A stretch of 64,000 nt of DNA from Myxococcota bacterium (GTDB lineage: Bacteria; Myxococcota_A; UBA9160; SZUA-336). Location of the stretch: contig JBBDXF010000029.1 in assembly GCA_040902485.1 (NCBI GenBank), forward strand, positions 244,318-308,317, given 5' to 3'. Under the pieces are notes generated by a model. That model worked only from the letters and a program-made list of their open reading frames with translations, was not told the origin of the DNA and ran no database searches. How positions within the stretch are numbered: position 1 is the first letter of the stretch; each line of letters opens with the position of its first letter. The translations under genes and the position numbers were made by a program. Positions 1,229 to 64,000 of this stretch are shown here, piece after piece.

Positions 1229-1395
1229 GTTCGACACGACACCCCACCATCGGAACACGATTGACCGGCACCATGGTTCAGGGAGCGCCGAACCGCCGAT
1301 TGGTGGCGCACGTTCGCACGGCCCCTCGGCACGAGCCGTGCCTCGGGTCACAGTTCGAGAATTTCCTCGGTCGCTCCTTCCGTCGACGACGGAAG

Positions 1396-26400: not shown

Positions 26401-26746
26401 CCTCGCCCGCCGTCACGGCGAAGCTCGTCATCAGCGAGACGCGGTAGCCCGACTTGGTGAACTTCACGCTGTAGCTGCCCGCGGGAACCCGCGGGAACTC
26501 GTAGGCGCCGGTCGCATCGGTGACCTGCTCCAGCTCGCGCGCAGCTCCTCCCGCGGCGCCGGGCGAGGGCGAGAGCGTCACCTTCACGCCCTCGATCGGC
26601 GCGGCGGACTCGCTGTCGATCAGCTGGCCGCGGATGCTGCCGGGAGCGGGTGGGGCTTCTTGCGCCCACGCCCGCGGCGCGAGCACGAGCGCGCACGCGA
26701 GCAAGAGAAGCCCGATGCGTGGGAGGGGAAGCTGGGTCGTCATCAC
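23468..26746 (-). CDS. TonB-dependent receptor with N-terminal carboxypeptidase-regulatory-like domain
   Basis: 1092 aa. Signal peptide, a CarbopepD_reg-like region (GQLIDSESAAPIEGVKVTL…TDATGAYEF), a plug domain, a long beta-barrel, and a C-terminal aromatic residue. Confidence 0.8.
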   Translation of the reverse strand: MMTTQLPLPRIGLLLLACALVLAPRAWAQEAPPAPGSIRGQLIDSESAAPIEGVKVTLSPSPGAAGGAARELEQVTDATGAYEFPRVPAGSYSVKFTKSGYRVSLMTSFAVTAGEVNRADFPLPPLPPQATEEMPGFEEFVVEASPMEEILAASRMESDELLNTLNAAEFAKFAASDVADALKFVPGVNVVEGQFAIIRGLEDRYSSTLYNSAVVPSPDPDSQSVQLDLFPSDIVTNLVVAKTFGPNLPSNSSGGSINILTNEYPESFEIKFSAGSGWNSNAVDDFYELNGGSPTGSQTDGWDTAESDFGMSIGGRGSLFEREIRFKAIGASEVDYQTGEGTESAAEPQRAATAPVPIPGGLSLGELALSDGTFDLTESEESKQKTGYAGLGFDLDPDGAHTIDANYFYTEKKDKTVQLYQNGWFEGFDYGPLAERQANNDDVFVSSFDGTATRSSWIARSIRANTGEPVTRGPLFGDSFAESDSFDVTRDLVVYQLNGDHSIGALDGLHLSWAANTARTSQTEESLGARYFYEPDDLSQVPTTFPSTVDSLGPGRFYVNDGIFASSNDVHEKQSFARADVAYEFDLSSALRLKLDGGYWYEHAKRDVESDFLESPTVSGSSQFALSCETAECLGSTIGTDLDLEPNGQFSGARDSENDSSRDIQAGNFGAKLTIWDDLDLLAGARWESILIESNNDPFTGEPALDGTPAIFPTKYLFFDRLDNPARGEGTPNADATYNDQLLGIAVPIDPSTGLVDLADEDEIRSFIDGEIDEHRVLPAFGFTYRPLEGLNLRGAYSQTVARPSFRELGYYVSVEPGSDDLIVGNPQLQLSDVVSYDLRTEYSWGETGDLAAFSVFYKTIDDPIESIIIRNPLNSEGSSSALFRTFFNNPSEARLYGVEVEGRKNLGFLGPDFAQYFSIGGNFTYIDAKVDRTDAELARANAFFGAPDGVPVRFSSYEKDRRLFGQPEWIANVDLSYDNPDWGTKITLSYFAISEILDAAGSAATSQNGEILSLTLDRYLDSFDQLNLVVSQTWQVNALGGDVTLKGNVKNLTDSERRVIYDEEQTRGTVVERSLKLGLDYSISLTYSLSF

Positions 26747-38040: not shown

Positions 38041-38130
38041 GAAAGCAGCGCCGCCGCGCGTGGGCCGATGGCCGCCGCGGTGGCTGACCATTCCTTGTCG
38101 TCGCGGCGCAGGCCGCGGCGTGGAGCGCGC

Positions 38131-40197
38131 ATGTTCCGATCCTCCGTTCGTTCTTCCGTTCGACGCTTTGCAGCCGTCTCGATCCTGTGTCTCGCGTCGG
38201 CCCCGTTGGCCTCTGCCGAGGACGATCCTCCGCCGGGCGCCGAGGACCACCGCGAGCCGGGCCACCAGGTCGAGGAGATCGTCATCACGGGCAGCCCGCT
38301 GGCCAAGAGCGTGGACGACCTGTCGCAGCCCGTGAACGTGCTCGGCGGCGACGAGCTGCTGATCTCGACCGAGCCGACTCTCGGTGAGACGCTCGCCGAC
38401 GAGCCGGGTCTCAGCTCGAGCTATTTCGGCCCGGGCGCGAGCCGCCCGATCATCCGCGGTCTCGACGCCGATCACATTCGCGTCTTGCGCAACGGCCTGG
38501 GCGCGATGGACGCCTCGGCCGCGAGCGCCGACCACGCGGTCACGATCGATCCGCTCGCGGTCGAGCGCATCGAGGTCGTGCGCGGGCCGAGCGCCCTGCT
38601 GTACGGTCCGACCAGCGTCGGCGGCGTGGTCAACGTGATCGACAATCGCATTCCCGACGAGCCGATCGACGGGGTCACCGGCCTGTTCGAGGGCTCGCTC
38701 GATTCAGTCGATCGCGGCACCAACGGCGCGGTGGTGCTCGAGGGCGGCGTGGGCGGGTTCCAGATCCACACCGATGGCCTGGCGCACCGCTCGCGGAATC
38801 TCGACATCCCGTCGTACGCGCGCTCGTCGAAGCTGCGGAGTACGGATCCGCTTCCGCCCGGAGAGCCGGAAGAGAAGGGGTCGCTCGAGAACAGCCAGAT
38901 CGACACCTACGCGAGCTCGATCGGCATCTCCTACGCCGGCGAGCGTGGCTTCATCGGCGTCGCACCCTCCGCCTTCGACAGCGACTACGGCACGGTCGCC
39001 GAGAAGGAGGTCACGATCGACATGCACGAGCGCCGCTGGGACTTCGCGGGGGGACTCCATCGACCGATCGACGGCGTCGAGAGCGTGCGCGGCAAGTTCG
39101 CGCTGTCCGACTACCAGCACATCGAGTTCGAGGGCGCGGAACAGGGCACGGTGTTCAAGCGGCGCGCCTACGAGGGCAGGCTCGAGGCGCTGCACGGCGC
39201 GCTCGGCCCGGTCAAAGGGGCGATCGGCGGACAGCTCTTCCGCAGCGACTTCTCGGCGCAAGGCGAGGAGGCATTCCTGCCGCCGTCGCTCACGCGCGGT
39301 TACTCGGCGTTCGTGCTCGAAGAGCTGCACGCGCCGTCGCTCCTGTTCCAGTTCGGCGGGCGCCTGGACTGGACGGACATCCGCACGGACTCCAGCGCGG
39401 ACTTCGGTCCGTCGCAGAAGCGCGACCGGCGGACGGGCAGCGGCGCGATCGGCGCGAGCTACGAGATCGACGACGAGTACACGCTCGCCGCAAACTACGC
39501 CTACACGCAGCGCCCGCCGCTTGCGCAGGAGCTGTTCGCGAACGGCCCGCACGTGGCGACCGACGCCTTCGAAATCGGCGATCCGGATCTCGATGTCGAG
39601 GAGTCGCTCGGCTTCGACCTGACGCTGCGCAAGGACGCGGGCTTTGTCACCGGCAGCCTCTCCGGCTTCTACCTGTACTTCGACGACTTCATCGCGCTGC
39701 AAGCCACGGGGCTGGTCGACCCGGTCGACGGCCTGCCGATCTTCCAGTACGTGAACATGCCGGCGACGTTCCTGGGCGGCGAGGCGGAGCTCACCTTGCA
39801 TCTGATCGAGACGGGCGAGCAGAGCCTGCACCTCGACCTGCGCGCCGACTACGTGCGCGCGCGCGATCGCGACAGCGGCGATCCGCTGCCGCGCATTCCG
39901 CCCTTCCGCTTCGGCGCGGAGCTCGCGTACCACGCCGGGCCGTTGCACGCGTCCGCGGGCGTGCTGCACGCGGCCGGCCAGAGCCGCACGGCCGACTTCG
40001 AGTTCTCGACCGACGAGTACACGCTGCTCGACGCGCGCGTCTCGTACGAGCTGCTGGTGCGCACGACCAAGGTCGTGTTCTTCGTGGTCGGCTCGAACCT
40101 CGCGAACCAGACCGCGCGCAACAGCGCGTCGTTCCTGAAGGAGGTGGCCCCGCTGCCCGGCCGCGGCGTGCGCGGCGGCGTCCGGCTCGCGTTCTAG
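38131..40197 (+). CDS. TonB-dependent receptor (metal/siderophore-type, 22-strand barrel)
   Basis: Signal peptide, a TonB box region, a plug (…VVRGPSALLYGPTSVGGVVNVI…), a beta-barrel, and a C-terminal …VRGGVRLAF. Confidence 0.8.
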   Translation: MFRSSVRSSVRRFAAVSILCLASAPLASAEDDPPPGAEDHREPGHQVEEIVITGSPLAKSVDDLSQPVNVLGGDELLISTEPTLGETLADEPGLSSSYFGPGASRPIIRGLDADHIRVLRNGLGAMDASAASADHAVTIDPLAVERIEVVRGPSALLYGPTSVGGVVNVIDNRIPDEPIDGVTGLFEGSLDSVDRGTNGAVVLEGGVGGFQIHTDGLAHRSRNLDIPSYARSSKLRSTDPLPPGEPEEKGSLENSQIDTYASSIGISYAGERGFIGVAPSAFDSDYGTVAEKEVTIDMHERRWDFAGGLHRPIDGVESVRGKFALSDYQHIEFEGAEQGTVFKRRAYEGRLEALHGALGPVKGAIGGQLFRSDFSAQGEEAFLPPSLTRGYSAFVLEELHAPSLLFQFGGRLDWTDIRTDSSADFGPSQKRDRRTGSGAIGASYEIDDEYTLAANYAYTQRPPLAQELFANGPHVATDAFEIGDPDLDVEESLGFDLTLRKDAGFVTGSLSGFYLYFDDFIALQATGLVDPVDGLPIFQYVNMPATFLGGEAELTLHLIETGEQSLHLDLRADYVRARDRDSGDPLPRIPPFRFGAELAYHAGPLHASAGVLHAAGQSRTADFEFSTDEYTLLDARVSYELLVRTTKVVFFVVGSNLANQTARNSASFLKEVAPLPGRGVRGGVRLAF

Positions 40198-42002: not shown

Positions 42003-42932
42003 ATGTTCCGGCGAGTTCGTCCAGTGAATCTTGACAAGGTGGATCTCAACAAGCTGCGCACCTTCGCCGAGGTCGCCTCGGCCGGCGGCGTGAGCCGGGC
42101 GGCGCGCCAGCTCTCGCTGACGCGCTCCGCGGTGAGCCAGAGCCTCGCGTCGCTCGAGGCATCGCTCGGCGTGCGGCTCTTCGACCGCGTCGGGCGGCGG
42201 CTCGTGCCCACCCAGGAGGGGCGCACGCTCGCCCGCCACTTCGGGCGCGTGCGCGAGGAGCTGCGCGACGCGCTCGCCGAGGTGGTCAACGTCGAGCGCG
42301 CGGTGCGCGGCGTGGTGCGCCTCGGGCTCTTCCCGGGCGCGTCGCGCACGCTGGTCGCGCGCGCGGTCGCGTCGTTCTCGGCCCGCAACGCGGGCGCGCA
42401 GGTGAGGCTCGGCTTCGGCTCCCATGCCGAGCTGCGCGCGGGCCTGGTCGGCAACCGCCTGGACTTCGCGCTGAGCGTGCAGCGCGGACGTGATGCCTCG
42501 ACGCGAATCCGCTCGACGGTGCTGATGCGCCAGACGCTGGTATTGGTCTCGAGCACGCCGCCGCCGCGCGGGGGCGTCGATCCTGCTTTCCTCGCCGGCC
42601 AGGCCATCATCGACTACTACCCCGCCCGTACGCTGATCCGGCGCTGGCTCGCGCACCACTTCCCGCGCAGGCGCGCCGCGCCGGACGTTCGCGTCTGGGC
42701 CGCGACGACGGATCTCGCGCTCGAGCTGGCGCTGCTCGGGGCCGGTGCGGCGGTGGTGCCGCGCTCGCTCGCGGCGCCGCTGGTGCGCAACGGACGGCTG
42801 CACGAGCTGCGCGGCCCGCGCGCCGAGCTCGACGACACGGTCTGGCTGGAGGAATCGGCGGGCGCCTGGCGGAACGCGACGCTCGAGGCGTTCCGCGCGA
42901 CGTTGGTCGCCGAGCTGGGCGAGGCGAAGTGA
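42003..42932 (+). CDS. LysR family transcriptional regulator
   Basis: N-terminal HTH (LNKLRTFAEVASAGGVSRAARQLSLTRSAVSQSLASLE) and a C-terminal substrate-binding domain. Confidence 0.75.
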   Translation: MFRRVRPVNLDKVDLNKLRTFAEVASAGGVSRAARQLSLTRSAVSQSLASLEASLGVRLFDRVGRRLVPTQEGRTLARHFGRVREELRDALAEVVNVERAVRGVVRLGLFPGASRTLVARAVASFSARNAGAQVRLGFGSHAELRAGLVGNRLDFALSVQRGRDASTRIRSTVLMRQTLVLVSSTPPPRGGVDPAFLAGQAIIDYYPARTLIRRWLAHHFPRRRAAPDVRVWAATTDLALELALLGAGAAVVPRSLAAPLVRNGRLHELRGPRAELDDTVWLEESAGAWRNATLEAFRATLVAELGEAK

Positions 42933-43735
42933 CGTCGTTCGGTGTCGCGCTCGAGATCACACCGCCGCGCGAGGACCGCCCCGACGTTCTGCTGCGCCGG
43001 GCGCGCCTGCTCGGCCGGTGCGCGGACGCGGTGCACGTGATCCAGCGCCCGGGGCGACAGCCCAGCCTCGACGCGTCGCTCGTGCTGGAACGCGCCGGGA
43101 TCGCGGCGGTCTGGCACGTCACCAACCGCGGCCGGGCTCGTGCGGAGCTCGAGCTCGAGATCGAGCGCGCCGCGGGCGAAGGTCTGCGCGCCGCCCTGGT
43201 CGTGCGCGGCGAGGGCGGCGCCGCCGACCGCGAAGACACGCCGACCCTGCGCGCGCTCGTGGCCCGGATCGGCGCGGCGATCCCGGGAGCGCGGATCGGC
43301 GTCACGCTGAATCCGTACCTCGACCCGGAGCGGGCGCTCGCGAACCTGTGGCCGAAGCTCGAGGCCGGCGCGGCGTTCATCCAGACGCAGCCCGTCTTCG
43401 AGCTCGCGTCGCTGCGCGCCGTCGCGGAGCGGATCCGCGTGCGGGCGCCGGCGGTCGCGATCCTGCCGATGGTGATTCCGCTGCTCTCCGCAGCGGCCGC
43501 CGAGAAGCTCGCGCTGCGCCTGCGCCTGCCGCTCCCTGCGAGCTTCGTCGAGCGTCTCGCGCGCGGCCGGGAGGCGGCCGGCTGGCGGCTCTTCAGCGAA
43601 GCCGTACGCGAGCTGCGCGCGTCGGGCCTCGCCGACGGCGTCGCGGTGATGACCCAGGAGATGGACCCGCCCGCCGCGTTCGGCGATCAGGTGCGCGCGG
43701 CGCTCGAGCGCAGCGCCGCGTGCGCGCCGACCTGA
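42929..43735 (+). CDS. methylenetetrahydrofolate reductase-like (MetF family) protein
   Basis: FIQTQPVFE resembles the MTHFR signature. TIM-barrel-like pattern. ATGA overlap with the LysR gene. Confidence 0.5.
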   Translation: MTSFGVALEITPPREDRPDVLLRRARLLGRCADAVHVIQRPGRQPSLDASLVLERAGIAAVWHVTNRGRARAELELEIERAAGEGLRAALVVRGEGGAADREDTPTLRALVARIGAAIPGARIGVTLNPYLDPERALANLWPKLEAGAAFIQTQPVFELASLRAVAERIRVRAPAVAILPMVIPLLSAAAAEKLALRLRLPLPASFVERLARGREAAGWRLFSEAVRELRASGLADGVAVMTQEMDPPAAFGDQVRAALERSAACAPT

Positions 43736-44606: not shown

Positions 44607-45278
44607 TCAGGCGCGGCGGCGGTACAGCGCGAGCAGGGCGACTCCGAGCGCCGAGAGCGCCGCGGTCGACGGCTCCGGCACGCTCGGCACGCTCCACTCG
44701 ACGATCATGCCGATGATCTGCGCGGTCGAGGGCGAGAGATCCTTCTCGTCGTTCCACTTGCCGCGCAGATCCTGCCCGGCCTCGTAGTAGTGGACCCACA
44801 TCGTGAGGAAGCGCTCGTCGATGTCGCCTTCATTGCTCGGCTCGTTCTCGGTGAGCCAGTTCGTGTAGCTCCACGACTCGGGCGCGATCTCGACGTTCAC
44901 GATCCACTGCCAGCCGGCTGCGGCGGTGGCGGCGCTCGGGCTGCCTTCCGGATCCTGCCGGCCGCCGATCCAGACCTGATTCTTGTTCACGCCGAAGCTC
45001 GGGAGCACCGCGCTCTGGATGAACGCCTGCTCCTCGGCCGAGGTGACCGTCGCGAGGTAGCCGACGCTGCCGTCGTCGAGCGTCGAGTCGTCCGCCTCCG
45101 CGTTGGCCTGGTCCCACGTCGCGGCGCTTTCGAGCCTGATGAACTCGTACGTGTGTCCATTGCCGCCGGAAGCGGTGCTCCACACGACGGGCGTCGCGAA
45201 GCCCTGCGACGCGAGCAACCAGAGCGCACCGACGACGGGCACCACTCTCGACACGAGACCGATCATCCGCGCGAACAC
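44607..45278 (-). CDS. PEP-CTERM protein with C-type lectin-like domain
   Basis: Signal peptide. CTLD-like pattern (NGHTYEF…TWDQANAEA…GYLATVTSAEEQAFI…VWIGG…WQW…YTNW…EP.N…GKWND). C-terminal VPSVPEPSTAALSALGVALLALYRRRA. Confidence 0.6.
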   Translation of the reverse strand: MFARMIGLVSRVVPVVGALWLLASQGFATPVVWSTASGGNGHTYEFIRLESAATWDQANAEADDSTLDDGSVGYLATVTSAEEQAFIQSAVLPSFGVNKNQVWIGGRQDPEGSPSAATAAAGWQWIVNVEIAPESWSYTNWLTENEPSNEGDIDERFLTMWVHYYEAGQDLRGKWNDEKDLSPSTAQIIGMIVEWSVPSVPEPSTAALSALGVALLALYRRRA

Positions 45279-45337: not shown

Positions 45338-46042
45338 TCAGCGGCAGCGGCGGACCAGACCCAGCAGGGCCATGCCGAACGCGGACAGCAGCGCGGTCGC
45401 CGGTTCCGGCACGTCGATCGTGTCGAACTCGACGATCATGCCGAGGATCTTCGGGAGCGGGAACTGCGGTGGGCCGTTGTCGCAGCCATCTTGCTCGCTG
45501 TGTCCGTTCCCGTTCTTGTCCCACTTCGAGAGAAAGCGCTTCTCGATCAACCCGTGGTGGTCCGGCTCGTTCTCGCTCTGCCACTTCCCCCACTTCCAGT
45601 GCTCGGGCGCAACCGCCGAGGGCAGGTTCTTACCCAGCGGGAGCTGCCCGTTCGACGAAGGATGGTTGTCGTTGACGAGCATGTACTGGTTCTCGGGCGC
45701 GACCCAGACGGCGCTGATGGGGTTTGCCCAGTCGTCGGGAAGTACTTGCTCGCGGATGAAGGTGCGCTCTTCGTCCGACTCGATCGTGGTGAGGTAGCCC
45801 TTCGTTCCGTCGGGGAGCGTGATCGTCTCGGCCTCGGCGTTGGCCGCAGACCAGGACGTCGTGTACGGCAGGGGCACGAACAGATACGTGTGGCCGGTGC
45901 CTCCGTCGGCTGTGTCCCACACGACCGGCTGGATCGGCGCGACCTGCATGGCGGACCCGACCGGGGCGAGCAGCGACGCGATGCCGCCGACGAACGCGGC
46001 GAGCGCCGCCCTGCGCATGCGGAGGCTGATGTTCACGACCAT
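45338..46042 (-). CDS. PEP-CTERM protein with C-type lectin-like domain (tandem paralog)
   Basis: Same architecture as 44607..45278 (TGHTYLFV…SWSAANAEA…GYLTTIESDEERTFI…GKW…). C-terminal DVPEPATALLSAFGMALLGLVRRCR. Confidence 0.6.
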   Translation of the reverse strand: MVVNISLRMRRAALAAFVGGIASLLAPVGSAMQVAPIQPVVWDTADGGTGHTYLFVPLPYTTSWSAANAEAETITLPDGTKGYLTTIESDEERTFIREQVLPDDWANPISAVWVAPENQYMLVNDNHPSSNGQLPLGKNLPSAVAPEHWKWGKWQSENEPDHHGLIEKRFLSKWDKNGNGHSEQDGCDNGPPQFPLPKILGMIVEFDTIDVPEPATALLSAFGMALLGLVRRCR

Positions 46043-46329
46043 GCTGAAGCTCCCGGCCGAGGCGATTTCCCCAGCCTACTACAGAGCGTGGATCGATACA
46101 TGAACTAGTGGCGGTAAAATTCGCCCTTGCGGGCGTCGTTCCGCCTCTGCCAAGCGCCGTTCCCACCGACCGACGAACGCGCAACTCCTCGATAAAGCAA
46201 GGGAAAGTGCGATGGAATGCCACCCGGGCGGCAACTTCGAACGGCCCTCTGCACGCTTTCATGACGGTTCGATGGACGAACGATGGGGGTATTCCCAATC
46301 CCCACTTACGGGTTCGCGCCGTCCTGCCG

Positions 46330-47835
46330 ATGTTGCAGCAACCCATGCCCAACTCGCCGCAGCCCGACCCGACCGACCAGCTTCTCGGTCGCGTAGCCGT
46401 CGCCGCCAAGCTGATCAGCATGGAGCAGCTCGCGATCGCGACGCGCGACCAGGGCCGGAAAGGGCTCGCCAAGAGCCTGGGCGAGACGCTCGTCGAGCTC
46501 GGGTTTCTGACGCCGGCGGCGCTCGCCAAGGTGGTCGAGCTGCAGAAGTCGGTGATGGAGAAGGCCAAAGCCAAGCAGGCCTCCGCCGCTGAGCCCGCGC
46601 CTGCCGGCACGCCCAAGGCGCCGACGCCCGCGCGCGAGCTCGGCGTGGAGACCGACGGGCGCGCGATGCGTGCACACGCGCAGTCCGCGGTCGCCTCGGG
46701 CGTCGCGCCCCGCGCCGCCGCGGCGGGACCGGTGCCCGCCAGGTCCGGGCCGACCGGCAATGGACCGATCGCGCTCGATCGCGGCCTCGACAATCTGCTG
46801 ATCGAAGCCTCGGGCCGCCTCGCGAGCGACGTGCACCTGCACAGCGGCGCGAGCCTGCGCGTCCGCGTGCGCGGAGCGCTGGTCGAGGTGCCGGATACGA
46901 AGGTCACGCAGGCCGACGCCGAGCGTCTGATCCTGCCCATGCTCTCCGCCGACGAGAAGGCGCTGCTCGAGGCCAACGGCGAGCTCGACCTCGCCTACAC
47001 CGTGAAGGGCCTCGCCCGCTTCCGCGTGAACGTGTACCGCCAGCTGCGCGGGCTCGACGCGACGCTGCGCCGGATCTCGCTCAAGCCGCCGACGCTGGCC
47101 GATCTGAACCTGCCCAGCGCCTTCGCGAAGTTCACGAACTTCCACCAGGGCATGGTGCTGATCACGGGTCCCTCGGCGTGCGGCAAGTCGTCGACGATGG
47201 CGGCGCTGGTGAATCTGGTGAACGAGGAGCGCGCCGAGCACATCCTGACCGTCGAGGATCCGATCGAGTACCTGCACAGCTCGAAGCGCTGCATCGTGAA
47301 CCAGCGCAACGTCAGGCGTCACACCGAGTCGTTCGCGCGCGCGCTGCGCGCCGCCCTGCGCGAGGACCCGGACGTGATCGTGATCGGCGAGCTGCGCGAC
47401 CGCGAGACCATCTCGCTCGCCATGACCGCCGCCGAGACCGGCCACTTCGTGCTCGCGACGCTGCACACCGACAACGCGGTTCGCACCGTGAACCGGATGA
47501 TCGGCTCGTTCCCGCCCGACCAGCAGGAGCAGGTGCGCGCGATGCTCTCCGAGTCGCTGCGCGCGGTGATCTCGCAGCGGCTGCTGCCGCGCGCGAACGG
47601 GATCGGCATGGTGCCCGCCGTCGAGGTGCTGGTCACCAACCGCGCCGTCGGCAACCTGATCCGCAAGAACGAGACCGTGCAGATCCGCTCGACCATGCAG
47701 ACCGGCGCGGCGCAGGGCATGAACCTGCTCGACATGTCGCTCGCGCAGCTCGTGAAGGCCGGCACGGTGAAGCGCGAGGACGCGCTGATCCACGCCGAAG
47801 ACCCGAAGCTGATCCCGGCGGCTCCGGCGGGATAG
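46330..47835 (+). CDS. PilT/PilU-family type IV pilus retraction ATPase with ~170-aa N-terminal extension (GspE-N/PilB-N-like)
   Basis: Walker A GPSACGKSST, AIRNLIRE-like NLIRKNE, His box. The N-terminus (VAVAAKLISMEQLAIATRDQG…LGFLTPAAL) resembles the T2SSE N-terminal domain. Start may be 46330 or 46345. Confidence 0.75.
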   Translation: MLQQPMPNSPQPDPTDQLLGRVAVAAKLISMEQLAIATRDQGRKGLAKSLGETLVELGFLTPAALAKVVELQKSVMEKAKAKQASAAEPAPAGTPKAPTPARELGVETDGRAMRAHAQSAVASGVAPRAAAAGPVPARSGPTGNGPIALDRGLDNLLIEASGRLASDVHLHSGASLRVRVRGALVEVPDTKVTQADAERLILPMLSADEKALLEANGELDLAYTVKGLARFRVNVYRQLRGLDATLRRISLKPPTLADLNLPSAFAKFTNFHQGMVLITGPSACGKSSTMAALVNLVNEERAEHILTVEDPIEYLHSSKRCIVNQRNVRRHTESFARALRAALREDPDVIVIGELRDRETISLAMTAAETGHFVLATLHTDNAVRTVNRMIGSFPPDQQEQVRAMLSESLRAVISQRLLPRANGIGMVPAVEVLVTNRAVGNLIRKNETVQIRSTMQTGAAQGMNLLDMSLAQLVKAGTVKREDALIHAEDPKLIPAAPAG

Positions 47836-56699: not shown

Positions 56700-57164
56700 A
56701 TGAACCCGAACATGAAGACGCAGCGAATACTCCTGGCGATCGCCCTGGCCTCGAGCTTCGAGCTCGCGCGCGAAGCGCTTGCGGACGGCGACGTGGGTCT
56801 CGATGTGCAGACGCAGGTCCAGCCGGCTGAAACGGACGTCGATGACGACAGCGACGACAGCCGCGAAATGGACGTCGACGAGGCCGGCGACTCGAGTCGC
56901 GAACAGGACGTCGATGACGCGGCTGACGAGGACCGCGAGCTCGATGTCGACGACGCGGACGACGCGAGCCGCGAACAGGAGCTCGACGACGCCGACGATC
57001 CCGACCGCGAGGTCGACGTCGACGAGGCCGGCGATCCCGACCGTGAAGAGGACGTCGACGACGTGACCGACGAGTCGCCCGGCTCGCTGGATGGCGACGA
57101 AGGCGAGAGCGACGAGGAAGTCGAAGCCGTACCGGTCGACGAGGACGAGGACGAAGAGAACTAG
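56700..57164 (+). CDS. secreted highly acidic repeat protein (Asp/Glu-rich, ~12-aa repeats)
   Basis: Signal peptide MKTQRILLAIALASS, then about six repeats of SRExDVDDAxDE. Roughly 45% D+E, consistent with possible Ca2+ binding. Confidence 0.5.
   Translation: MNPNMKTQRILLAIALASSFELAREALADGDVGLDVQTQVQPAETDVDDDSDDSREMDVDEAGDSSREQDVDDAADEDRELDVDDADDASREQELDDADDPDREVDVDEAGDPDREEDVDDVTDESPGSLDGDEGESDEEVEAVPVDEDEDEEN
56836..57074 (+). repeat. about 6.5 tandem 36-bp coding repeats (GACGTCGAYGAsgcnGAcgannnnCGCGAaca-like)
   Basis: Seen directly in the sequence; encodes the acidic repeats of 56700..57164. Confidence 0.5.
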
Positions 57165-57883
57165 GCGGACTGGCGCAGCCGCTCGGTCGCGATCGCGGAC
57201 ACCGCCGCCTGCAGGTTGTAGCAGGGGATGAAGCCCGCCATCGGCACGCGGATCGACGCGTCGCAGCGGGCGAGCAGCTCCGGCGGGATGCCGCCGTTCT
57301 CGCCACCCACCACGAACACGCGCGGTCCGGTCAGATCGACCTGCCAGGGCGCGTGCTCGCCCGACTCGTCGAGCGCGATCACGCGGTGGCCGTGCGCGCG
57401 CGCGGCGTCGAGCACCTCGAGCGCCTTGCGCCAGTAGACCGGCATGAACTTGTCGGCGCGCATGGCGGCGCGCAACGCCGAGCGCTTGGCCTCGTGGTCG
57501 AAGCTACCGTCGATCGCGATCGCATCGGCGCCCGACACTTCGGCGGTTCGGACGACCATGCCGATGTTGCCCGGATAGGCGACGCCGACCAGCAGCCAGA
57601 GCGCGCCGCCGCGCGCGAGTGTGGCCTCGAGATCGGCGTCCGGGTCGCGGCCTACCAGCGCCAGGATCTCCTGCGCGGGGCGCACGTGACACAGGCGCGT
57701 GACGACGTTGCGCGTCGCCAGCCGCACCTCGATCCCGAGCTCGCGCGCGCGCGTGACCAGCGGCGCCACCTCTTCGTGGCGGGCGTCCTCCTGCACCAGC
57801 AGGAGGCGCACGTCCTCACCCGCGCGCAACGCGGCCGCGATCGCTTCGGGACCGGCGAGCTGTCGCACGCGAGGCTCTTTCAC
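57161..57883 (-). CDS. TrmH/SpoU family RNA 2'-O-methyltransferase (RlmB-like)
   Basis: N-terminal substrate-binding domain, then SPOUT motifs (…LLVGVAYPGNIGMVVRTAEVSGADAI…, …VFVVGGENGGIP…RVPMAGF…SLNLQAAVS-like). GTG start with no upstream in-frame ATG. Confidence 0.65.
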   Translation of the reverse strand: MKEPRVRQLAGPEAIAAALRAGEDVRLLLVQEDARHEEVAPLVTRARELGIEVRLATRNVVTRLCHVRPAQEILALVGRDPDADLEATLARGGALWLLVGVAYPGNIGMVVRTAEVSGADAIAIDGSFDHEAKRSALRAAMRADKFMPVYWRKALEVLDAARAHGHRVIALDESGEHAPWQVDLTGPRVFVVGGENGGIPPELLARCDASIRVPMAGFIPCYNLQAAVSAIATERLRQSA

Positions 57884-57894
57884 TTTGCCGGAGC

Positions 57895-59667
57895 TTACGG
57901 GAGAAACGGCGCGCAGACATGCGCGATGCCGGATGCGGCGCCCGCGAGGGCCCGGCGCAGGCGCACGGCGTCGATCAGGTCGCAGCCGGCCGATCCGCCC
58001 ACGTCGCACTTCTCGGGCGCGGGCAGCGCTCCGAGCGAGCCGGCCAGGAAGGCGCGCAGCGCGTCGACGTCGTCGCCGTCGACAATGCCGTCGTCGCTCG
58101 GATCGCCGCACTGGCAGCCGTCGCCGATCCCGTCGGCCAGCGGCGTCGCGACCCCGCCGGAGTCGAGCTGACCGCTGGTCGCGTCCACGGGGCACACGTC
58201 GAGCGCGTCCTCGACGCCGTCGCCGTCCCAGTCGCCGGTCGCGGCCGGCACGGTTCCGCCGAGGTGCCCGCGCACGACGTAGCCGGTCGGGCTCCCGGTC
58301 GCGAACAGCAGATCGCTGCCCGCCAGTCCGCCCGCGCTGTTGCCGTGCAGGAGCATCGGGCCCGGACAGCACTCCACGCCAATCTGCCCGGCCGGTGCCG
58401 TGGCCGCCAGCGTCTGGGCGACACCGAAGCGCGACGGCAGCAGCGGATGGGGCCGCGACAGGTTGCGCGGGTCGAACGCGAGCAGCGCGAGACCCCCGTC
58501 GTTGAACGAGGTGGCGGCCAGGAAGTCGCCCGACGCGCCAAAGCGCACCTGCGGCACGTACGAGTAGATCCCGCTCGAGCCGGGCGGCGGCGCGAGCACG
58601 ATCGGGTTCGCGCCGCCGCGGATCACGCGCTCGCGCAGGCACGGCACGCCGCCGGCGCTCGGGTCGCTGGTGCCGTTGCACGTCGGCCGCTGCAGGCGCG
58701 CGTCGACGGGCGCGGTCGGAAGCGCCGCCACGTCGCGCACGTCGACCGCGACGAGCTGGCGCAGCGTGGTCGAGCCCGCCACCGCGACGGAGCCCGTCGG
58801 GTCGAGCGCGAGCGAGCGCCCCGCAGGATTGCCGGGTCCGAGCGGGATCGAGCCGACCAGCAGACCCGTCGCTACCTCGACCACGTCGATGCTCCCCTGC
58901 CCCGTCACGAGCGGCGGAAAGCTCACGTCGAAGAGCCCCGCGTTCGTCACCGCGACGCGTCCGCCAGGAAGCTCGGTGAGCGCGATCGGATTCGGGTCGG
59001 ACGTGATCGCGTAGAACGGGCTCGCCGGCGCGACCGTCGTGGTCGGGCCGGAGTCGTCGATGCTGAAGAACAAGAGCGTTCCGGGATTCCAGATCGGGCT
59101 CGAGCCGGACTGCCGGATGTTCGAGGTGGCGACGACCAGGCGATTGCCGATGCGCAGCGCGGCGCTGGTGAAGTTGGTGGTGAAGCTCGCGATCGAGAGC
59201 GGCGCGCCGCTGCTCGGATAGGTGGTGAAGCTGCCCGCGATCACGTGCCGCGCCGGCACCGAGCTGCGGCTCGCGCCCGAGTAGAGCAGCGGCCAGCCCG
59301 CGCCAGTCGCGTAGTCGAACGGCACCACGAGCTCGCACACCGACGTCGTGAGCCAGCCGCGTGTCTCGCCGGTTCCGCGCTCGAGCGAGAAGTTCCCCAC
59401 CTTCGGCACGAGCTGCACGGGATTCACGAAGCAGCTGGCGGGCTCGTAGGCGAGCACGTAGTACGCGCCGGCCCAGCCGAGCGGGTGGGCCGGGGTCATC
59501 TGCAGCTGGTACACGCCGGGCGCACCGACCGGCGCCGCGACGAACGCGCGGTTCGGATCGGTCGGGTGCGCCTCGAGCCCGGCCGGGAACTGCACGACCT
59601 GCAGCGCGTCCATCGAAGCGGAGCCGACCGTGAGCGTGGCGGCGAGCAGCACGGCGGCGGCGCTCAC
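57895..59667 (-). CDS. secreted repeat protein (beta-propeller-like) with Asp/Cys-rich C-terminal module, co-transcribed with the BtuB-like receptor
   Basis: GTG start in a GTGA overlap with the receptor stop. Signal peptide VSAAAVLLAATLTVGSAS. Internal repeats (…RLVVATSN…, …GRVAVTNAG…, …GSVAVAGST…). C-terminal DWDGDGVEDALDVCP…GDGCQCGDPSDDGIVDGDDVDALRAF is TSP3/dockerin-like Ca-binding sequence. Confidence 0.5.
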   Translation of the reverse strand: MSAAAVLLAATLTVGSASMDALQVVQFPAGLEAHPTDPNRAFVAAPVGAPGVYQLQMTPAHPLGWAGAYYVLAYEPASCFVNPVQLVPKVGNFSLERGTGETRGWLTTSVCELVVPFDYATGAGWPLLYSGASRSSVPARHVIAGSFTTYPSSGAPLSIASFTTNFTSAALRIGNRLVVATSNIRQSGSSPIWNPGTLLFFSIDDSGPTTTVAPASPFYAITSDPNPIALTELPGGRVAVTNAGLFDVSFPPLVTGQGSIDVVEVATGLLVGSIPLGPGNPAGRSLALDPTGSVAVAGSTTLRQLVAVDVRDVAALPTAPVDARLQRPTCNGTSDPSAGGVPCLRERVIRGGANPIVLAPPPGSSGIYSYVPQVRFGASGDFLAATSFNDGGLALLAFDPRNLSRPHPLLPSRFGVAQTLAATAPAGQIGVECCPGPMLLHGNSAGGLAGSDLLFATGSPTGYVVRGHLGGTVPAATGDWDGDGVEDALDVCPVDATSGQLDSGGVATPLADGIGDGCQCGDPSDDGIVDGDDVDALRAFLAGSLGALPAPEKCDVGGSAGCDLIDAVRLRRALAGAASGIAHVCAPFLP

Positions 59668-61754
59668 GGCGTCGCCCCGCGCAGGCGCACCAGCCAGAGC
59701 GTCTGGTTCGGCAGCGGCTGGCCGATCGAGTCGTAGCGCTGCTCGTGGTTCAGGTTCGCGGCCTCGATCGAGAGCGCGACGCTCGGGGGAAGGAACTCGA
59801 AGCCCGGCACGCGCTGCGGGCGCAAGATCACACCCGCATCCACCTGGAAGCCCGCCTCGGCTAGCGTCGGGTTGCCCACCTGGTACGAGACCTCGCTCTC
59901 GTAGCGGATCTCGGTCCACGGCTCGACGGGCCCCAGGTCGAGCGAAGCGGAGAGCGCCACCCGGTCCTCCGGCACGTGCGGGAATACGCGCTCGACGCCG
60001 CTCGCGAACGCCGCCCCGCTGCCCGTCCCGCCGAGGTAACGCGTGTCGGTGTAGGTGTAGCCGACGCCGAGCTGCAAGCGTTCGAAGAGCCGAGCGCCCA
60101 CGCCGAGCTCGAAGCCCAGCGCGCGCGTCGGACCGGTGTTGACCGGCATGAAGGCGTTGCTGGCGGTGAACATCCACTCGATGCCCTCGTCGATCTCGCG
60201 CTGGAACACGTCGGCCGAGAAGTGCAGATCGCGAACCGGTCCCACGCCGCGGCTTGCGAGCTCGAAGCCGAGGTCCGCGTTCCAGCCGCGCTCGGAGAGC
60301 AGCGCCGGATTGCCGCGGATGAAGCCCCAGTCGGGATGGAACAGGTCGGTGAACGTGGGCCGCCGCGCCACGCGCTTCCAGTTCGCCTTGGCGCGCAGGC
60401 CGGGGGCGAGCTGCCAGATCGCGCCCACCGACGGCAGCCAGGCATTCTCGTCGCGCGGCGACACTTCGACGAGCGGCTGCGACGCGGCCGAGCGCGCCAG
60501 CCCGTCGCTGGTGTCCGCGCGCTCGAAGGCGAGCGCCGGGAAGATGCGCAGCTCGCCGCCGAAGAAGCTGAGCTCCGACGCGACCGAGACCAACACCGTC
60601 GTGCGTCGGTGGATCTCCGCGTCCGAGGAGTCGACGCGCGCGTAGCGCAGGCTCGAGGCCGCGCGGCCGCCCAGCTCGACCCAGTCGAACGAGAGCGGAT
60701 CTGCCACCCAGCGCGTGTCGAGCGACGACTCGGATTCGCGGATGACTGCGGAGTCGCGCCCGCCCGTCACCAGCGGATTCACGAACTCGCAGGCACCGGC
60801 GGGATCGTCGAGCCGGTCCTCTTCGGCGCGGAACGCTCCTGCCACCTCGAAAGCGCCGCCGAGCGCGCGCTCGTGGCTCCAGCCCAGACGCAGGAGGCCT
60901 CGCTCGTACGACTCGTCCGAAGTGGTGCACGAGAGCGGGTCGTCGGTGATGAAGAACGGCTTTGCCCAGGTGCTGCCCGGCTCGCCGCCGTCCTTCTGGT
61001 ACAAGTCGAGCGTCGCGTCGAGCCGCGAGCGCGCGCCGGTCGCGAGCGTGCCGCGCAGGAGACCCGCGTTCTCGACGAAGTCCGCGTTGAGACGCGTGTG
61101 CGAGATCGTGCCGATCGGCACCGGCTGGCCCGGAAGCGGGTTGGGGACGAACTCGGGCGCCTCGACTTCGAAGCGGTAGTCGTTGTCGCTGCGCAGGCGC
61201 GAGAAGGTCGCGAGCGCCTGCCCGCGCTCGCCGCCGCCGGAGAGCGTGAGATCGCCGCCGAGCGTCTCGTACGTGCCGGCGCTGAGCGACGCGTCGGCCG
61301 CGGGATCGGCGCTCTCCGGCTTGCGCGTGGTGATCGCGATGACGCCGCCCTCGGCGCCGCTGCCGAAGCGCGCCGAGCCGCCCCCGCGCAGCACCTCGAT
61401 GCGCTCCACCTGGCGCAGCGGGATCGTCGACAGATTCACCGCTCCGCGCTGCGCGCTGTTGAGCCGCACGCCGTCGACCAGCACGAGCACCTGCTCGGCC
61501 TTCGAGCCGCGGATCGAGGCGGTGCTGGCCGAGCCGAGCCCGCCGTAGCGCTGCACGCGCACGCCCGGAACCTGGTCGAGCAGCTCGGCCACGGTCGCGA
61601 AGCGCTCGTCGTAGTCGCGCGCTTCGATCACGGTCGAGAACGCCGAGGGATCCTCGGCCGATTCGGACAGCTCGCCGGCTACACCGTACGGTGCAACCGC
61701 GAACAGAGCTGCGAGGACCGCATTGCCTGCGATCCGGTTGGATTTTCGTCGCAC
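59664..61754 (-). CDS. TonB-dependent receptor, BtuB-like (cobalamin/corrinoid outer-membrane transporter candidate)
   Basis: Signal peptide, TonB box region, plug (…VERIEVLRGGGSARFGSGAEGGVIAITT), 22-strand barrel, and a C-terminal aromatic residue. Immediately downstream of a cobalamin riboswitch on the same strand. Confidence 0.8.
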   Translation of the reverse strand: MRRKSNRIAGNAVLAALFAVAPYGVAGELSESAEDPSAFSTVIEARDYDERFATVAELLDQVPGVRVQRYGGLGSASTASIRGSKAEQVLVLVDGVRLNSAQRGAVNLSTIPLRQVERIEVLRGGGSARFGSGAEGGVIAITTRKPESADPAADASLSAGTYETLGGDLTLSGGGERGQALATFSRLRSDNDYRFEVEAPEFVPNPLPGQPVPIGTISHTRLNADFVENAGLLRGTLATGARSRLDATLDLYQKDGGEPGSTWAKPFFITDDPLSCTTSDESYERGLLRLGWSHERALGGAFEVAGAFRAEEDRLDDPAGACEFVNPLVTGGRDSAVIRESESSLDTRWVADPLSFDWVELGGRAASSLRYARVDSSDAEIHRRTTVLVSVASELSFFGGELRIFPALAFERADTSDGLARSAASQPLVEVSPRDENAWLPSVGAIWQLAPGLRAKANWKRVARRPTFTDLFHPDWGFIRGNPALLSERGWNADLGFELASRGVGPVRDLHFSADVFQREIDEGIEWMFTASNAFMPVNTGPTRALGFELGVGARLFERLQLGVGYTYTDTRYLGGTGSGAAFASGVERVFPHVPEDRVALSASLDLGPVEPWTEIRYESEVSYQVGNPTLAEAGFQVDAGVILRPQRVPGFEFLPPSVALSIEAANLNHEQRYDSIGQPLPNQTLWLVRLRGATP

Positions 61755-61789
61755 CGAGTGACTCCCTCCGCGGAGAGCGGGACTCCCAT

Positions 61790-61965
61790 CCCGATCACTC
61801 GGCAGGTCTCCTGGCTCAGGGGTCTGGCGCCGGAATCGAGCCTTCCCCGGGATCGCTCCCGAGTGGCGTCTTTCGATCCGACTCCCCCATCACAGTGGCG
61901 GGACCGCGGCCGATTTTCACGGCCTTCCCTCTTAGGTCCGCGACGCGGACACCGAGTGCCGCCAT
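61790..61965 (-). ncRNA. cobalamin (B12) riboswitch in the 5' leader of the BtuB-like receptor
   Basis: The minus-strand read contains AGGGAAGGCCGTGAAAATCGGCCGCGGTCCCGCCACTGTGATGGG (GGGAA…GGTG.AA..CC…CCCGCCACTG B12 box) and the 3' AGCCAGGAGACCTGCC element. Ends about 40 nt before the receptor start. Confidence 0.7.
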
Positions 61966-62059
61966 CGGTATCACCCGCTGCGCAACGCTGTCAACCTCTT
62001 CAAGCACTTGACGTCGGGGCTTGACGTGTCGGCGGCGAGCGCGTACTTCTCGCCACGTA

Positions 62060-62225
62060 CGAGTCGCGGAAGGTGTCGGGAAGCCGGTGTGAATCCGGCG
62101 CGAGCCCGTCGCTGTAACCGGGGACGAACGCCGCACTCCGAGCCATCGGAGCGGAGCCACTGGGATCGCAGGATCCTGGGAAGGCGCGGCGTGAGGACGA
62201 TCCGGGAGCCAGAAGACCGGCCTTC
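62060..62225 (+). ncRNA. cobalamin (B12) riboswitch in the 5' leader of the PEP-CTERM protein gene
   Basis: The plus-strand read contains GGGAAGCCGGTGTGAATCCGGCGCGAGCCCG…, the B12 box GCCACTGGGA, and the 3' AGCCAGAAGACCGGCC. Followed by AAAGGAA and the ATG at 62270. Upstream TTGACG-N17-TACTTC is a plausible promoter. Confidence 0.7.
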
Positions 62226-62269
62226 CGCAGGGAAAGAAAACTTCTCCGGCAGCGAGAAAGGAATCCACC

Positions 62270-63076
62270 ATGCGAGTCCTCGGTCTTCTATTGCTCTGCG
62301 TCTTCGCGCGCCCCGCTTTCGCGTCGTCGTTCGCCACGCAGGTCGTGAGCTACACGGCCGGCACGAACGTTCTCACCGGCTACGACGATCCGCTCTCGTC
62401 GCTCGGCGAGCCCGCGCGCTCGACGGGCACGGGCCCGTTCGACGGCGACGTGACGCCGTTCAACGCGCCCTACACCGCCGATCAGGTCGTGGGAGTCGGC
62501 GCCGGCGGCGAGCTGGTGCTGCGCTTCGATCACCAGGTGACCGACGATCCTGAGAACCTGTACGGCATCGACCTCTTGATCTACGGCAACGCGTTCCTCG
62601 GCCTCTCCTTCGAGACCTTCCTCGCCGACGGCACGGTGTTCGGCGAGCCGGCGCGCGTCGCCGTGAGTCAGGACGGATCGCTGTGGATCGACGCGACCGG
62701 GCTGTTCGCGGACGATCTCTTCCCGACGCTCGCGTACCAGGATCCGCCGGGTCCGTTCTCGAGCGGCGGCACGATCCCGACCAGCTTCACGCGCCCGGTC
62801 GATCCGTCGCTCGACGCGTCGGACTTCAACGGTCTCGACACCGCGCAGATCGCGGCGCTCTACGGCGGCGGCGCGGGCGGGCTCGGCATCGACCTCGGCG
62901 CGCTCGGACTGCCGTGGATCGAGTACGTGCGCATCTGGCAGCCGAGCGGCGACGGCTACGCGTCCGAGATCGACGCCATCGCCGACGTGCCGGAGCCCGC
63001 TTCGCGGACACTGCTCGGCGTCGCCGCGCTCGCGCTCATTTCGCGTCGAGCGCGAACACGCCGTCCCAGTCGCTAG
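62270..63076 (+). CDS. PEP-CTERM sorting domain-containing secreted protein (B12-riboswitch controlled)
   Basis: Signal peptide MRVLGLLLLCVFARPAFA. C-terminal DVPEPASRTLLGVAALALISRRARTRR. No known catalytic motif. Confidence 0.6.
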   Translation: MRVLGLLLLCVFARPAFASSFATQVVSYTAGTNVLTGYDDPLSSLGEPARSTGTGPFDGDVTPFNAPYTADQVVGVGAGGELVLRFDHQVTDDPENLYGIDLLIYGNAFLGLSFETFLADGTVFGEPARVAVSQDGSLWIDATGLFADDLFPTLAYQDPPGPFSSGGTIPTSFTRPVDPSLDASDFNGLDTAQIAALYGGGAGGLGIDLGALGLPWIEYVRIWQPSGDGYASEIDAIADVPEPASRTLLGVAALALISRRARTRRPSR

Positions 63077-64000
63077 GCGGCGGATCGGCCCCGTAGGCGC
63101 TTCCGCGCGCCTGGAGCATGCGCGCGGGGGCGTCGTCGGGAGCGAGCTGGAGCAGCCGCGCGAGCGCGCGCGCGGACGCGTCCCAGTCGCGGGCGCGGTA
63201 GGCCGCGAGCGCCTCGGCGTAGTGCGCGAGCACGTTCAGCGTGCGCGCGTCGACCTCGCCGGCCAGGCCGACCAGCTCGAAGATGCGCACCTCGGCGCGC
63301 CGGCCCAGCACGCGCACGGTGTCGAGCTCGCGCGTGACGAAGCCCTCGCCGGCCCGCGCGCGCGTCGCTTCCGAGATCAGTACGCGCGTGCCGTACGCCT
63401 TGTTCGCGCCCTCCAGGCGACTCGCCAGGTTCATGCCGTCGCCGACCACGCCGTAGGTGCCCCGCTCGACGGAGCCGATCTCGCCGGCGACGAGCTCGGC
63501 CGTGTGCAGACCCATGCGATAGCGCGGAGCGAGCACGCCGCGCTCCGACCAGCGCGCGCACAGCGCGTCGAGCCGGATCGACGCGGCCAGCGCGGCGCGA
63601 CAGGCGCGGGGCGCGTGGTCCGGCTGCTCGATCGGCGCGCCCCAGAACGCCACCACGCCGTCGCCCTGGAACTCCTTGACGGTGCCGTCGTGCTCGAGCA
63701 CCGCCCCGCAGACCGCCTCGAAGTACTCGTTCAGGTGCGCGACCACCGCCTCGGGCTCGAGCTCCTCCGCGAGCTCGGTGAAGCCGCCGAGGTCGACGAA
63801 CAGCACCGTCAGCTCGCGACGCACGCCCGCGAGCGCCGCTCGGCCCGGCGCGCGCAGCAGCTCCGCGGCCACGCCCTTCGAGACGTAGCGCTCGAGCGTC
63901 TGCTTGATCAGCTCGCGCTCGGCGAGTCCCGACGCCATCTCGTTGAAGGCTGCGCCGAGCGCCTCGAGCTCGTCGCCGGTCCCGATCTCGACGCGCGTCT
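63036..64000 (-). CDS. class III adenylate/guanylate cyclase catalytic domain protein (N-terminus beyond the window)
   Basis: LTVLFVDLGGFTELAE…FQGDGVVAFWGAP…GLHTAELVAGEIGS…YGVVGDGMNLASRLEG is the CYTH-unrelated class III cyclase core. The ORF is open to the window edge. Confidence 0.7.
   Translation of the reverse strand, partial: TRVEIGTGDELEALGAAFNEMASGLAERELIKQTLERYVSKGVAAELLRAPGRAALAGVRRELTVLFVDLGGFTELAEELEPEAVVAHLNEYFEAVCGAVLEHDGTVKEFQGDGVVAFWGAPIEQPDHAPRACRAALAASIRLDALCARWSERGVLAPRYRMGLHTAELVAGEIGSVERGTYGVVGDGMNLASRLEGANKAYGTRVLISEATRARAGEGFVTRELDTVRVLGRRAEVRIFELVGLAGEVDARTLNVLAHYAEALAAYRARDWDASARALARLLQLAPDDAPARMLQARGSAYGADPPPSDWDGVFALDAK

Follow-up and report, generated by a model that had tools for sequence, protein, structure and literature searches.

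A divergent pair of cobalamin riboswitches in a Myxococcota genome precedes a BtuB-like receptor coupled to a beta-propeller protein and a PEP-CTERM protein with a distant BtuH-like domain: a putative corrinoid-acquisition module

Few microbes make vitamin B12, many scavenge it, and its capture at the outer envelope is known in detail only for Escherichia coli, which uses BtuB alone, and for the BtuB-BtuG-BtuH-BtuJ relay of gut Bacteroides. Here, we describe a locus with a possible counterpart of that relay in a 64,000-nucleotide (nt) stretch of a Myxococcota genome (GCA_040902485.1, contig JBBDXF010000029.1, positions 244,318 to 308,317; the window in what follows). An Rfam scan of the window gave exactly two RNA-family matches, both full-length cobalamin riboswitches (RF00174), lying back to back in a region of about 71% G+C. 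One precedes the gene of a BtuB-like TonB-dependent outer-membrane receptor of 696 amino acids (aa) (59664-61754, minus strand), which is followed by the gene of a 590-aa accessory protein (57895-59667, minus strand). The other precedes the gene of a 268-aa protein (62270-63076, plus strand). We favor, with moderate confidence, the view that these genes form a cobalamin-repressed corrinoid-acquisition module of the outer envelope, which would follow the BtuB-BtuG-BtuH logic with partly different proteins. An earlier note made from the sequence alone had proposed the two accessory proteins as corrinoid-capture candidates in a noncanonical B12-scavenging module, and our analysis supports them as such.

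Both riboswitches that the note had recognized are clear matches. Aptamer 1 (61784-61971, minus strand; 121.2 bits) and aptamer 2 (62054-62239, plus strand; 92.1 bits) each cover model positions 1-189 and lie above the gathering score of 31.5 bits. The first ends 29 nt before the start codon of the receptor gene and the second 30 nt before the ATG of the 268-aa gene. The divergent elements are separated by a spacer of 82 nt (61972-62053), defined by position only, which presumably holds both promoters. Two TTGACG hexamers are visible in it, and a scan of positions 57000-63300 with the sigma-70 consensus found no match. The same interval contained no intrinsic terminator, and this, together with the spacing of about 30 nt to the start codons, suggests that the riboswitches repress at the level of translation. 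For the second leader, the minimum-free-energy fold did not surpass that of shuffled sequence (z = -0.59) and is uninformative on the expression platform.

The receptor combines a Plug domain (84 bits) with a TonB_dep_Rec_b-barrel domain (106 bits). Among NCBIfam models it scores best with TIGR01779 (TonB-B12), reaching 129.5 bits, under the equivalog cut-off of 599.7; with NF007926 it reaches 89.4 bits (cut-off 836), so that it falls outside equivalog-level BtuB membership (TIGR01779/PRK10641). Among solved structures, its best relatives are E. coli BtuB (5e-19), the BtuB of 8p98 and Bacteroides BtuB1 (8blw_A). We infer that the receptor is specific for B12 because a cobalamin riboswitch precedes its gene. 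Its TGA stop shares bases with the GTG start of the 590-aa open reading frame (ORF), in a GTGA overlap that can be read directly in the sequence (gccGTGAgc), as the earlier note had it.

The protein encoded after this overlap comprises a signal-like N terminus, a seven-bladed beta-propeller (residues ~20-470), a thrombospondin type-3 (TSP3) calcium-binding repeat (residues ~478-527; 58087-58236, minus strand) and a dockerin-like module (residues ~529-586; 57910-58083, minus strand). Its AlphaFold2 model, built with 39 relatives, is nearly all beta-strand and has a predicted local distance difference test score (pLDDT) of 89 and a predicted template-modeling score (pTM) of 0.87. Foldseek searches of the PDB returned seven-bladed propellers, the best being E. 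coli YncE (3vgz, E 1.3e-8) and WD40 proteins, with target TM-scores of about 0.7. The propeller is covered by no Pfam model in any of the 39 relatives, and by no NCBIfam model either. For the tail, TSP_3 gives 19.5 bits in the window copy, under the cut-off of 25, and matches 38 of the 39 relatives (best 6e-8), while Dockerin_1 matches 23 of them (best 1.9e-7). Among PDB sequences, the family profile finds the cartilage oligomeric matrix protein COMP (3fby, E 4e-8), thrombospondins and dockerin chains including 8ajy_B (0.0026). Judged from these profiles, the identity of the tail as TSP3 plus dockerin holds at the level of the family. We found 91 relatives, all of about equal length and all derived from metagenomes or metagenome-assembled genomes (MAGs); those bearing an organism name are, with one exception, called Myxococcota.

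The propeller-like fold and the Asp/Cys-rich, TSP3/dockerin-like C terminus thus stand as first described, and secretion stands in part. More distant relatives have classical signal peptides, but the N terminus of the window copy (MSAAAVLLAATLTVGSAS) is short, uncharged and signal-like, so that this copy is presumed to be secreted. Neither the protein nor its relatives have a lipobox. We considered two possible homologies and rejected both. As a sequence homologue of BtuG, the propeller failed to appear, since two Bacteroides btuB1-btuG1 loci, translated in six frames, gave its family hidden Markov model (HMM) only E > 0.8; because nothing is found there, its likeness to BtuG is one of fold class and gene position, and not a demonstrable homology. 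With the propeller of PQQ type found in Planctomycetota (see below), only the dockerin-like tail aligns, at 4% probability.

The 268-aa protein, under the second riboswitch, had been described as a PEP-CTERM protein without domains. The riboswitch and the PEP-CTERM end hold; the lack of a domain does not. The protein consists of a Sec signal peptide (residues 1-18), a beta-jellyroll resembling BtuH (residues ~19-238; 62324-62983, plus strand) and a PEP-CTERM anchor (residues 239-268; 62984-63073, plus strand). In its AlphaFold2 model (pLDDT 89.9, pTM 0.85), a jellyroll of about 215 residues lies between the signal peptide and the PEP-CTERM helix, and it has no Pfam match in any of 44 relatives. 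NCBIfam gives PEP-CTERM models and weak matches to a Leptospira lipoprotein family only. The signal peptide (MRVLGLLLLCVFARPAFA, followed by SS) has no lipobox, so the protein is not a lipoprotein as BtuH is. Its C terminus, VPEPASRTLLGVAALALISRRARTRRPSR, reads directly as a VPEP motif, a hydrophobic transmembrane helix and a basic, Arg-rich tail. The Pfam PEP-CTERM model gives it 15.6 bits, under the cut-off of 20.7, and matches 34 of the 44 relatives (best 1.3e-7); TIGR02595 matches 19 of 41. An NCBI protein with 100% identity to it comes from a Myxococcota MAG. A Pfam scan of about 20 of the about 50 ORFs predicted in the window showed neither an exosortase gene nor cob genes. The window also encodes two more PEP-CTERM proteins (44607-45278 and 45338-46042, both minus strand), one with a C-type lectin domain, which make it probable that exosortase sorting operates in this organism. 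Their genes adjoin one for a type II/IV secretion ATPase (46108-47835, plus strand). Membership of the 268-aa protein in the DUF4465/BtuJ family was tried and rejected: PF14717 matches none of the 44 members at E <= 10.

The relation of this jellyroll to BtuH emerges from several methods. In Foldseek searches of the PDB, the sole match at E <= 0.001 was 8blw_B, the BtuG1 of Bacteroides thetaiotaomicron (E 1.3e-5); weaker matches were CBM32, discoidin and other carbohydrate-binding jellyrolls. When the broader of two family profiles (A3) was searched against 177,635 distinct PDB sequences with hmmsearch, it matched only 8blw_B, in residues 435-498 of its BtuH-type domain (E 0.01); the narrower profile (A2) matched none of the PDB sequences. 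In six-frame translations of two Bacteroides btu loci, A3 matched only three BtuH-type domain fragments. A search of a large protein database with the 64-aa BtuG1 fragment gave three short fragments only, from whose contigs BtuH-type sequences were recovered; the true BtuH-type sequences of 8blw_B and 7biz_A (BtuH2) were taken from PDB alignments. Aligned to BtuH-type domains by hhalign, the family reached a probability of 95.5% (E 1.5e-8), and 94.9% (E 4.3e-8) when the solved BtuH2 and BtuG1 domain sequences were included. As a control, the profile of BtuH-type domains matched only 8blw_B and 7biz_A in the PDB.

Part of the ligand site appears to be shared. With BtuH2 numbering checked on 7biz_A (Q333, F334, N399, F401, E406, Y475, H476, Y510, W511, D522, W577, S582 and E584 as expected), hhalign places N399, F401 and E406 opposite the conserved N107, F109 and E126 of the 268-aa protein. 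These residues lie in a shared GNAF...EP motif, and N107 and F109 are invariant or nearly so in the family. In BtuH2, N399 contacts the phosphate/nucleotide loop and the metal site, F401 contacts the lower ligand (5,6-dimethylbenzimidazole), and E406 belongs to the metal site (PMC8941943, PMC13616437). In addition, E584 may match E233, by eye only. Taken together, these comparisons lead us to place the domain, as a very distant member, in the BtuH-domain superfamily, a link that is remote but consistent across methods. The comparison of structures with BtuG and BtuH that the earlier note asked for comes out in favor of its proposal, within limits: the 590-aa protein shares the fold class of BtuG but no sequence relation with it, and BtuG1 is the sole significant PDB match of the 268-aa protein.

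How widespread is this arrangement? The profile of the 268-aa family, searched against 1.84 billion representatives, matched 2,576 clusters at 50% identity (E <= 1e-3), 1,116 of them at E <= 1e-10. When one genome per species was scanned, 448 loci came up. Of the best 80, which were kept for comparison, most belong to Planctomycetota (Phycisphaerales, Pirellulales and others); Myxococcota contribute about a dozen, and Omnitrophota and other groups a few. Using an nhmmer profile made from 16 Rfam-verified riboswitches, we found a cobalamin riboswitch-like element upstream of the homologue and on the same strand in 78 of 86 loci, within 500 nt in 71 (median 172 nt). Two of the eight remaining loci are truncated at the 5' end of the gene, and two have an operon-internal fusion gene. 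Re-tested with Rfam, 16 of 24 homologue loci were confirmed; the eight failures are loci with an absent or weak nhmmer match, plus the locus L035. In one of the loci without a riboswitch (L063), two matches to the Acido-Lenti-1 small RNA (1318-1363, minus strand; 1452-1499, plus strand), barely over the Rfam gathering score, lie directly downstream of the BtuH-like gene. Three Planctomycetota-type loci have riboswitches of about 310 nt with large insertions (L015 5495-5802, L022 5510-5825 and L035 5523-5809), which Rfam scores low (44-47 bits) or, for L035, misses. Four loci that closely resemble those of Planctomycetota carry other names, namely, L022 (a "Limnohabitans sp." MAG), L035 and L046 ("Ca. 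Kuenenia stuttgartiensis" MAGs) and L066 (an "Anaerolineales" MAG); L022 and L035 are alike in layout, with the riboswitch and a transfer RNA at matching positions. These contigs may be mis-binned or mis-assigned, and the taxonomic spread of the family could be narrower than the names imply.

The conservation beside cobalamin riboswitches that the proposal calls for is also seen for the whole locus. Every related Myxococcota locus with intact flanks has the full architecture: riboswitch, receptor, propeller and SpoU genes on one side, and riboswitch and jellyroll gene on the other. The counterpart of aptamer 1 is present in all of the related Myxococcota loci. The divergent double-riboswitch layout is found in the window and in loci L001, L003-L008, L010, L011, L014, L016 and L024, with propeller identity down to 45%, and in the most distant of them the divergent gene is still a recognizable relative (hhalign, 98%).

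The Planctomycetota loci (L015-L085) are built differently. A riboswitch and the jellyroll gene are followed in 55 loci by a gene resembling DUF1559/N-methyl pseudopilins, and in about 17 a propeller of PQQ_2 type with a dockerin/EF-hand-like tail stands between the two (e.g., L083 8510-12409 and L085 8546-12280). No TonB-dependent receptor lies nearby, and this receptor-less version may work differently. Fusions link the jellyroll to other domains. In P0344 (841 aa, on three contigs), the jellyroll domain (hhalign E 1e-39) is fused to DUF4465 (PF14717, E 1e-54), which is the BtuJ domain; experiments with eight divergent members have demonstrated its B12 binding (PMC13398666). The P0344 gene (L086 1779-4304, L087 161-2686) comes directly after a gene for a fusion of BtuF (Peripla_BP_2) and CbiZ (L086 3-1697); a riboswitch was not seen on these short contigs. 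When aligned to P0344 by hhalign, the 268-aa family matches the N-terminal domain alone, with no second match to the DUF4465 part, and this is a further reason for rejecting a DUF4465 relation. Two other proteins, P0353 and P0336, have a propeller followed by a jellyroll domain, which is the arrangement of Bacteroides BtuGH (PMC10404256).

Three independent lines place the 268-aa family in corrinoid acquisition, namely, the near-universal riboswitch control across phyla, the remote homology to a proven B12-binding domain with a ligand site that appears partly conserved, and the fusion or operon linkage to DUF4465, BtuF and CbiZ. We regard the protein of the window as a likely corrinoid binder that is exported and anchored by its PEP-CTERM signal. 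The coupling of the propeller to a riboswitch-controlled receptor, its fold class and the recurrent association of propellers with BtuH-like domains make it a plausible extracellular partner of the BtuG kind, by analogy, and here we are more tentative, putting the chance at slightly below even. The module could work as follows. When intracellular B12 is low, both riboswitches would permit expression. The 268-aa protein would be exported by Sec, processed by the exosortase and retained by its PEP-CTERM signal at the cell surface or in the matrix, where its BtuH-like jellyroll would capture environmental corrinoids. Translational coupling would supply the propeller in fixed proportion to the receptor. 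Once exported, the propeller could sit at the receptor as a second partner that binds corrinoids or hands them over, in functional analogy to the lid formed by BtuG, with its calcium-binding TSP3 and dockerin-like tail serving as a tether. The BtuB-like receptor would then import the corrinoid with TonB energy. The B12 binding and the surface location of both accessory proteins, like their contacts with each other and with the receptor, are predictions of this model.

Several observations weigh against this model and give room to others. The link to BtuH is remote, since the hhalign alignments span just 59-80 core columns, the PDB sequence match of A3 is borderline (E 0.01), the Foldseek TM-scores are low (0.36 and 0.17) and BtuH2 (7biz) is not in the top 50 Foldseek matches of the 268-aa protein. 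Two of the four BtuH-type comparison sequences were stitched from frameshift-rich contigs, although the result held with the true PDB sequences. The Q333/F334 motif of BtuH2 (GQF) is not conserved in the family, and its ligand residues beyond these and N399, F401 and E406 are outside the confident alignment. Most riboswitch calls in the related loci rest on our home-made nhmmer profile and not on Rfam. Nor does the 268-aa protein represent an entirely new kind of protein, being a very distant relative of the known BtuH domain. The jellyroll could instead be a lectin- or CBM-like binder of polysaccharides in an exosortase-dependent matrix, with no binding of corrinoids and with an indirect control by B12, for example, as part of a surface remodeling when the vitamin is scarce. 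The carbohydrate-binding proteins among its weaker Foldseek matches and the loss of GQF would fit such a role, as would the general association of PEP-CTERM proteins with exopolysaccharide. It would leave unexplained why the gene follows riboswitches in 78 of 86 loci across phyla and why a relative is fused to a proven B12-binding DUF4465 domain in a btuF-cbiZ operon; the BtuH-type domain is also the best PDB match by both structure and sequence, with N399, F401 and E406 conserved. We consider this alternative very improbable.

The propeller is the less secure part of the corrinoid-acquisition model. Its Foldseek matches are generic, with BtuG absent from the top 50, the family HMM search shows no sequence similarity to BtuG, and the combination of a missing lipobox with a short, uncharged N-terminal signal leaves either the periplasm or the cell surface as its compartment. 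The main rival places it in the periplasm, where it would receive the corrinoid from the receptor and deliver it to a transporter of the inner membrane, replacing or helping BtuF, or would be an assistant of the YncE/YncD kind; the 268-aa protein would still capture corrinoids at the surface. There is no outer-membrane sorting signal, only a Sec-type or weak one, the closest solved bacterial fold is the periplasmic YncE, and the scan of about 20 of the window's about 50 ORFs showed no btuFCD genes. Dockerin and TSP3 modules are, however, typical of secreted or surface proteins, the Planctomycetota analogue is paired or fused with an exported jellyroll protein, and lids of the BtuG type are the sole characterized precedent for a propeller encoded right after btuB (PMC10404256). 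A periplasmic role seems unlikely to us. The propeller could also be an enzyme or a general accessory of the receptor, trimming or remodeling corrinoid precursors or protecting or assembling the receptor, without carrying cobalamin. Many seven-bladed propellers are enzymes, this one has no homology to BtuG, and an active site could be formed by Arg, Gln, Trp, Phe and Cys residues that its family conserves. This is quite improbable in our view, given that no enzyme family was matched in Pfam or NCBIfam and that a stoichiometric partner would be expected to show just such strict translational coupling to a BtuB-like receptor under riboswitch control.

The operon may extend beyond the propeller. 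A gene for a SpoU/TrmH-type RNA 2'-O-methyltransferase of 240 aa (57161-57883, minus strand; Pfam SpoU_methylase and SpoU_sub_bind) starts 11 nt past the stop of the propeller gene and is probably co-transcribed with it because of this short distance. In L001 (9791-10543) the two genes overlap by 4 nt. In all 11 related loci whose flanks are long enough (including L001, L004, L006-L008, L010, L011, L014, L016 and L024), the SpoU gene comes right after the propeller gene, and it seems to be part of the B12-riboswitch operon throughout the clade. Convergent with it, and overlapping its 3' end by 4 nt, is the gene of a secreted 154-aa protein (56700-57164, plus strand) that is extremely acidic (Asp/Glu-rich), has no Pfam match and contains about six copies of a 12-residue repeat (a 36-nt tandem repeat with 73-76% matches). 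On the other side, an adenylate/guanylate cyclase gene with a tetratricopeptide-repeat tail (63036-63938, minus strand) is convergent with the 268-aa gene, their 3' ends overlapping by about 40 nt. The cyclase is conserved only in closer relatives (L003, L008-L011), and for this reason it is probably outside the module. Elsewhere, the window encodes two more TonB-dependent receptors (23468-26746, minus strand; 38068-40197, plus strand), one with a CarboxypepD_reg domain at its N terminus, as well as a LysR regulator and, after it, a methylenetetrahydrofolate reductase (42003-43735, plus strand). No riboswitch precedes any of these genes.

These results indicate that the idea known from Bacteroides, in which surface capture proteins feed a receptor that has a propeller partner, also applies to Myxococcota of soil and aquatic habitats. 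The Bacteroides relay itself is well described and comprises BtuJ, BtuH, BtuK, BtuG and BtuB (PMC13616437). Probably, this scheme of B12 scavenging exists, in a different form, in both Myxococcota and Planctomycetota. In the literature searched, we found no description of the 268-aa family, of PEP-CTERM proteins or DUF1559 proteins with cobalamin riboswitches, of BtuG-like partners in Myxococcota or of a B12 uptake route in Planctomycetota. Dozens of Planctomycetota genomes have a riboswitch-controlled operon that is recognizable by its BtuH-like domain, and the domain gives a testable annotation to about 2,500 protein clusters now labeled hypothetical. The results also provide a candidate function for one DUF1559 paralogue, and candidate B12-binding scaffolds. 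A bolder extension, which we hold to be rather unlikely, is that this family is the core of an unrecognized envelope system for B12 acquisition that is widespread outside Bacteroidota. In Planctomycetota, uptake would then use a fibre similar to pili or to type II secretion, and in Myxococcota the capture domain would be coupled to a BtuB-type receptor, with an unrelated propeller recruited as a lid that is tethered by its dockerin and not by a lipid. If this were true, a member of the very large and uncharacterized DUF1559 family would have its first specific substrate; at present, the association is possibly the first hint of one.

How does the locus compare with known systems? The closest counterparts of the 268-aa domain are the BtuH domains of B. 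thetaiotaomicron, which we compared as BtuH1 (BT1488), BtuH2 (BT1956, 7BIZ) and the H-domain of BtuG1/BtuGH (BT1490, 8BLW chain B). The domain is of similar size (~220-270 aa) and shares the colinear core motifs VSxGxGGxxxVxF, DxxxxGNAF and EPxxVxVSxD. Its gene, too, lies beside a btuB-type receptor gene under a cobalamin riboswitch, and relatives of the domain are fused to beta-propellers, as in BtuGH. It differs in that its identity to BtuH is too low for Pfam, NCBIfam or single-sequence searches, in that it is anchored by PEP-CTERM (by a dockerin in some relatives) and not as a lipoprotein, and in that its gene has its own riboswitch and, presumably, its own promoter. Whereas BtuH homologues are reported to be predominantly from Bacteroidota (PMC13616437), the 268-aa family is found in Myxococcota, Planctomycetota and Omnitrophota.

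BtuG is a surface-exposed lipoprotein of Bacteroidota with a seven-bladed propeller that caps BtuB (PMC10404256). The 590-aa protein is likewise a seven-bladed, YncE-like propeller, a fold that is itself generic (chain B of 8blw, i.e., BtuG1, is labeled "YncE family protein" in the PDB). Its gene directly follows that of a riboswitch-controlled btuB-type receptor, an order kept in all related loci, and it coexists with a BtuH-like protein. Unlike BtuG, it has no lipoprotein signal, it carries the additional TSP3 repeat and dockerin-like module at its C terminus, and its start overlaps the stop of the receptor gene. A similar neighborhood of a TonB-dependent receptor and a propeller is found in YncD-YncE of E. 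coli. The identity to YncE is only 10-11%, and YncE has no TSP3 or dockerin tail; it is iron-regulated and periplasmic, with no known link to B12. BtuJ (DUF4465, PF14717) offers another parallel, since it is a secreted or surface jellyroll of about 25-30 kDa in B12-riboswitch loci and is spread beyond Bacteroidota, including Myxococcota and the Planctomycetes-Verrucomicrobia-Chlamydiae group (PMC13398666). One relative of the 268-aa protein, P0344, holds both domains; the families are nonetheless different. Set against these systems, the functional logic of the locus is already known, and what is new is a far-diverged capture domain, another anchor (PEP-CTERM) and an unrelated propeller.

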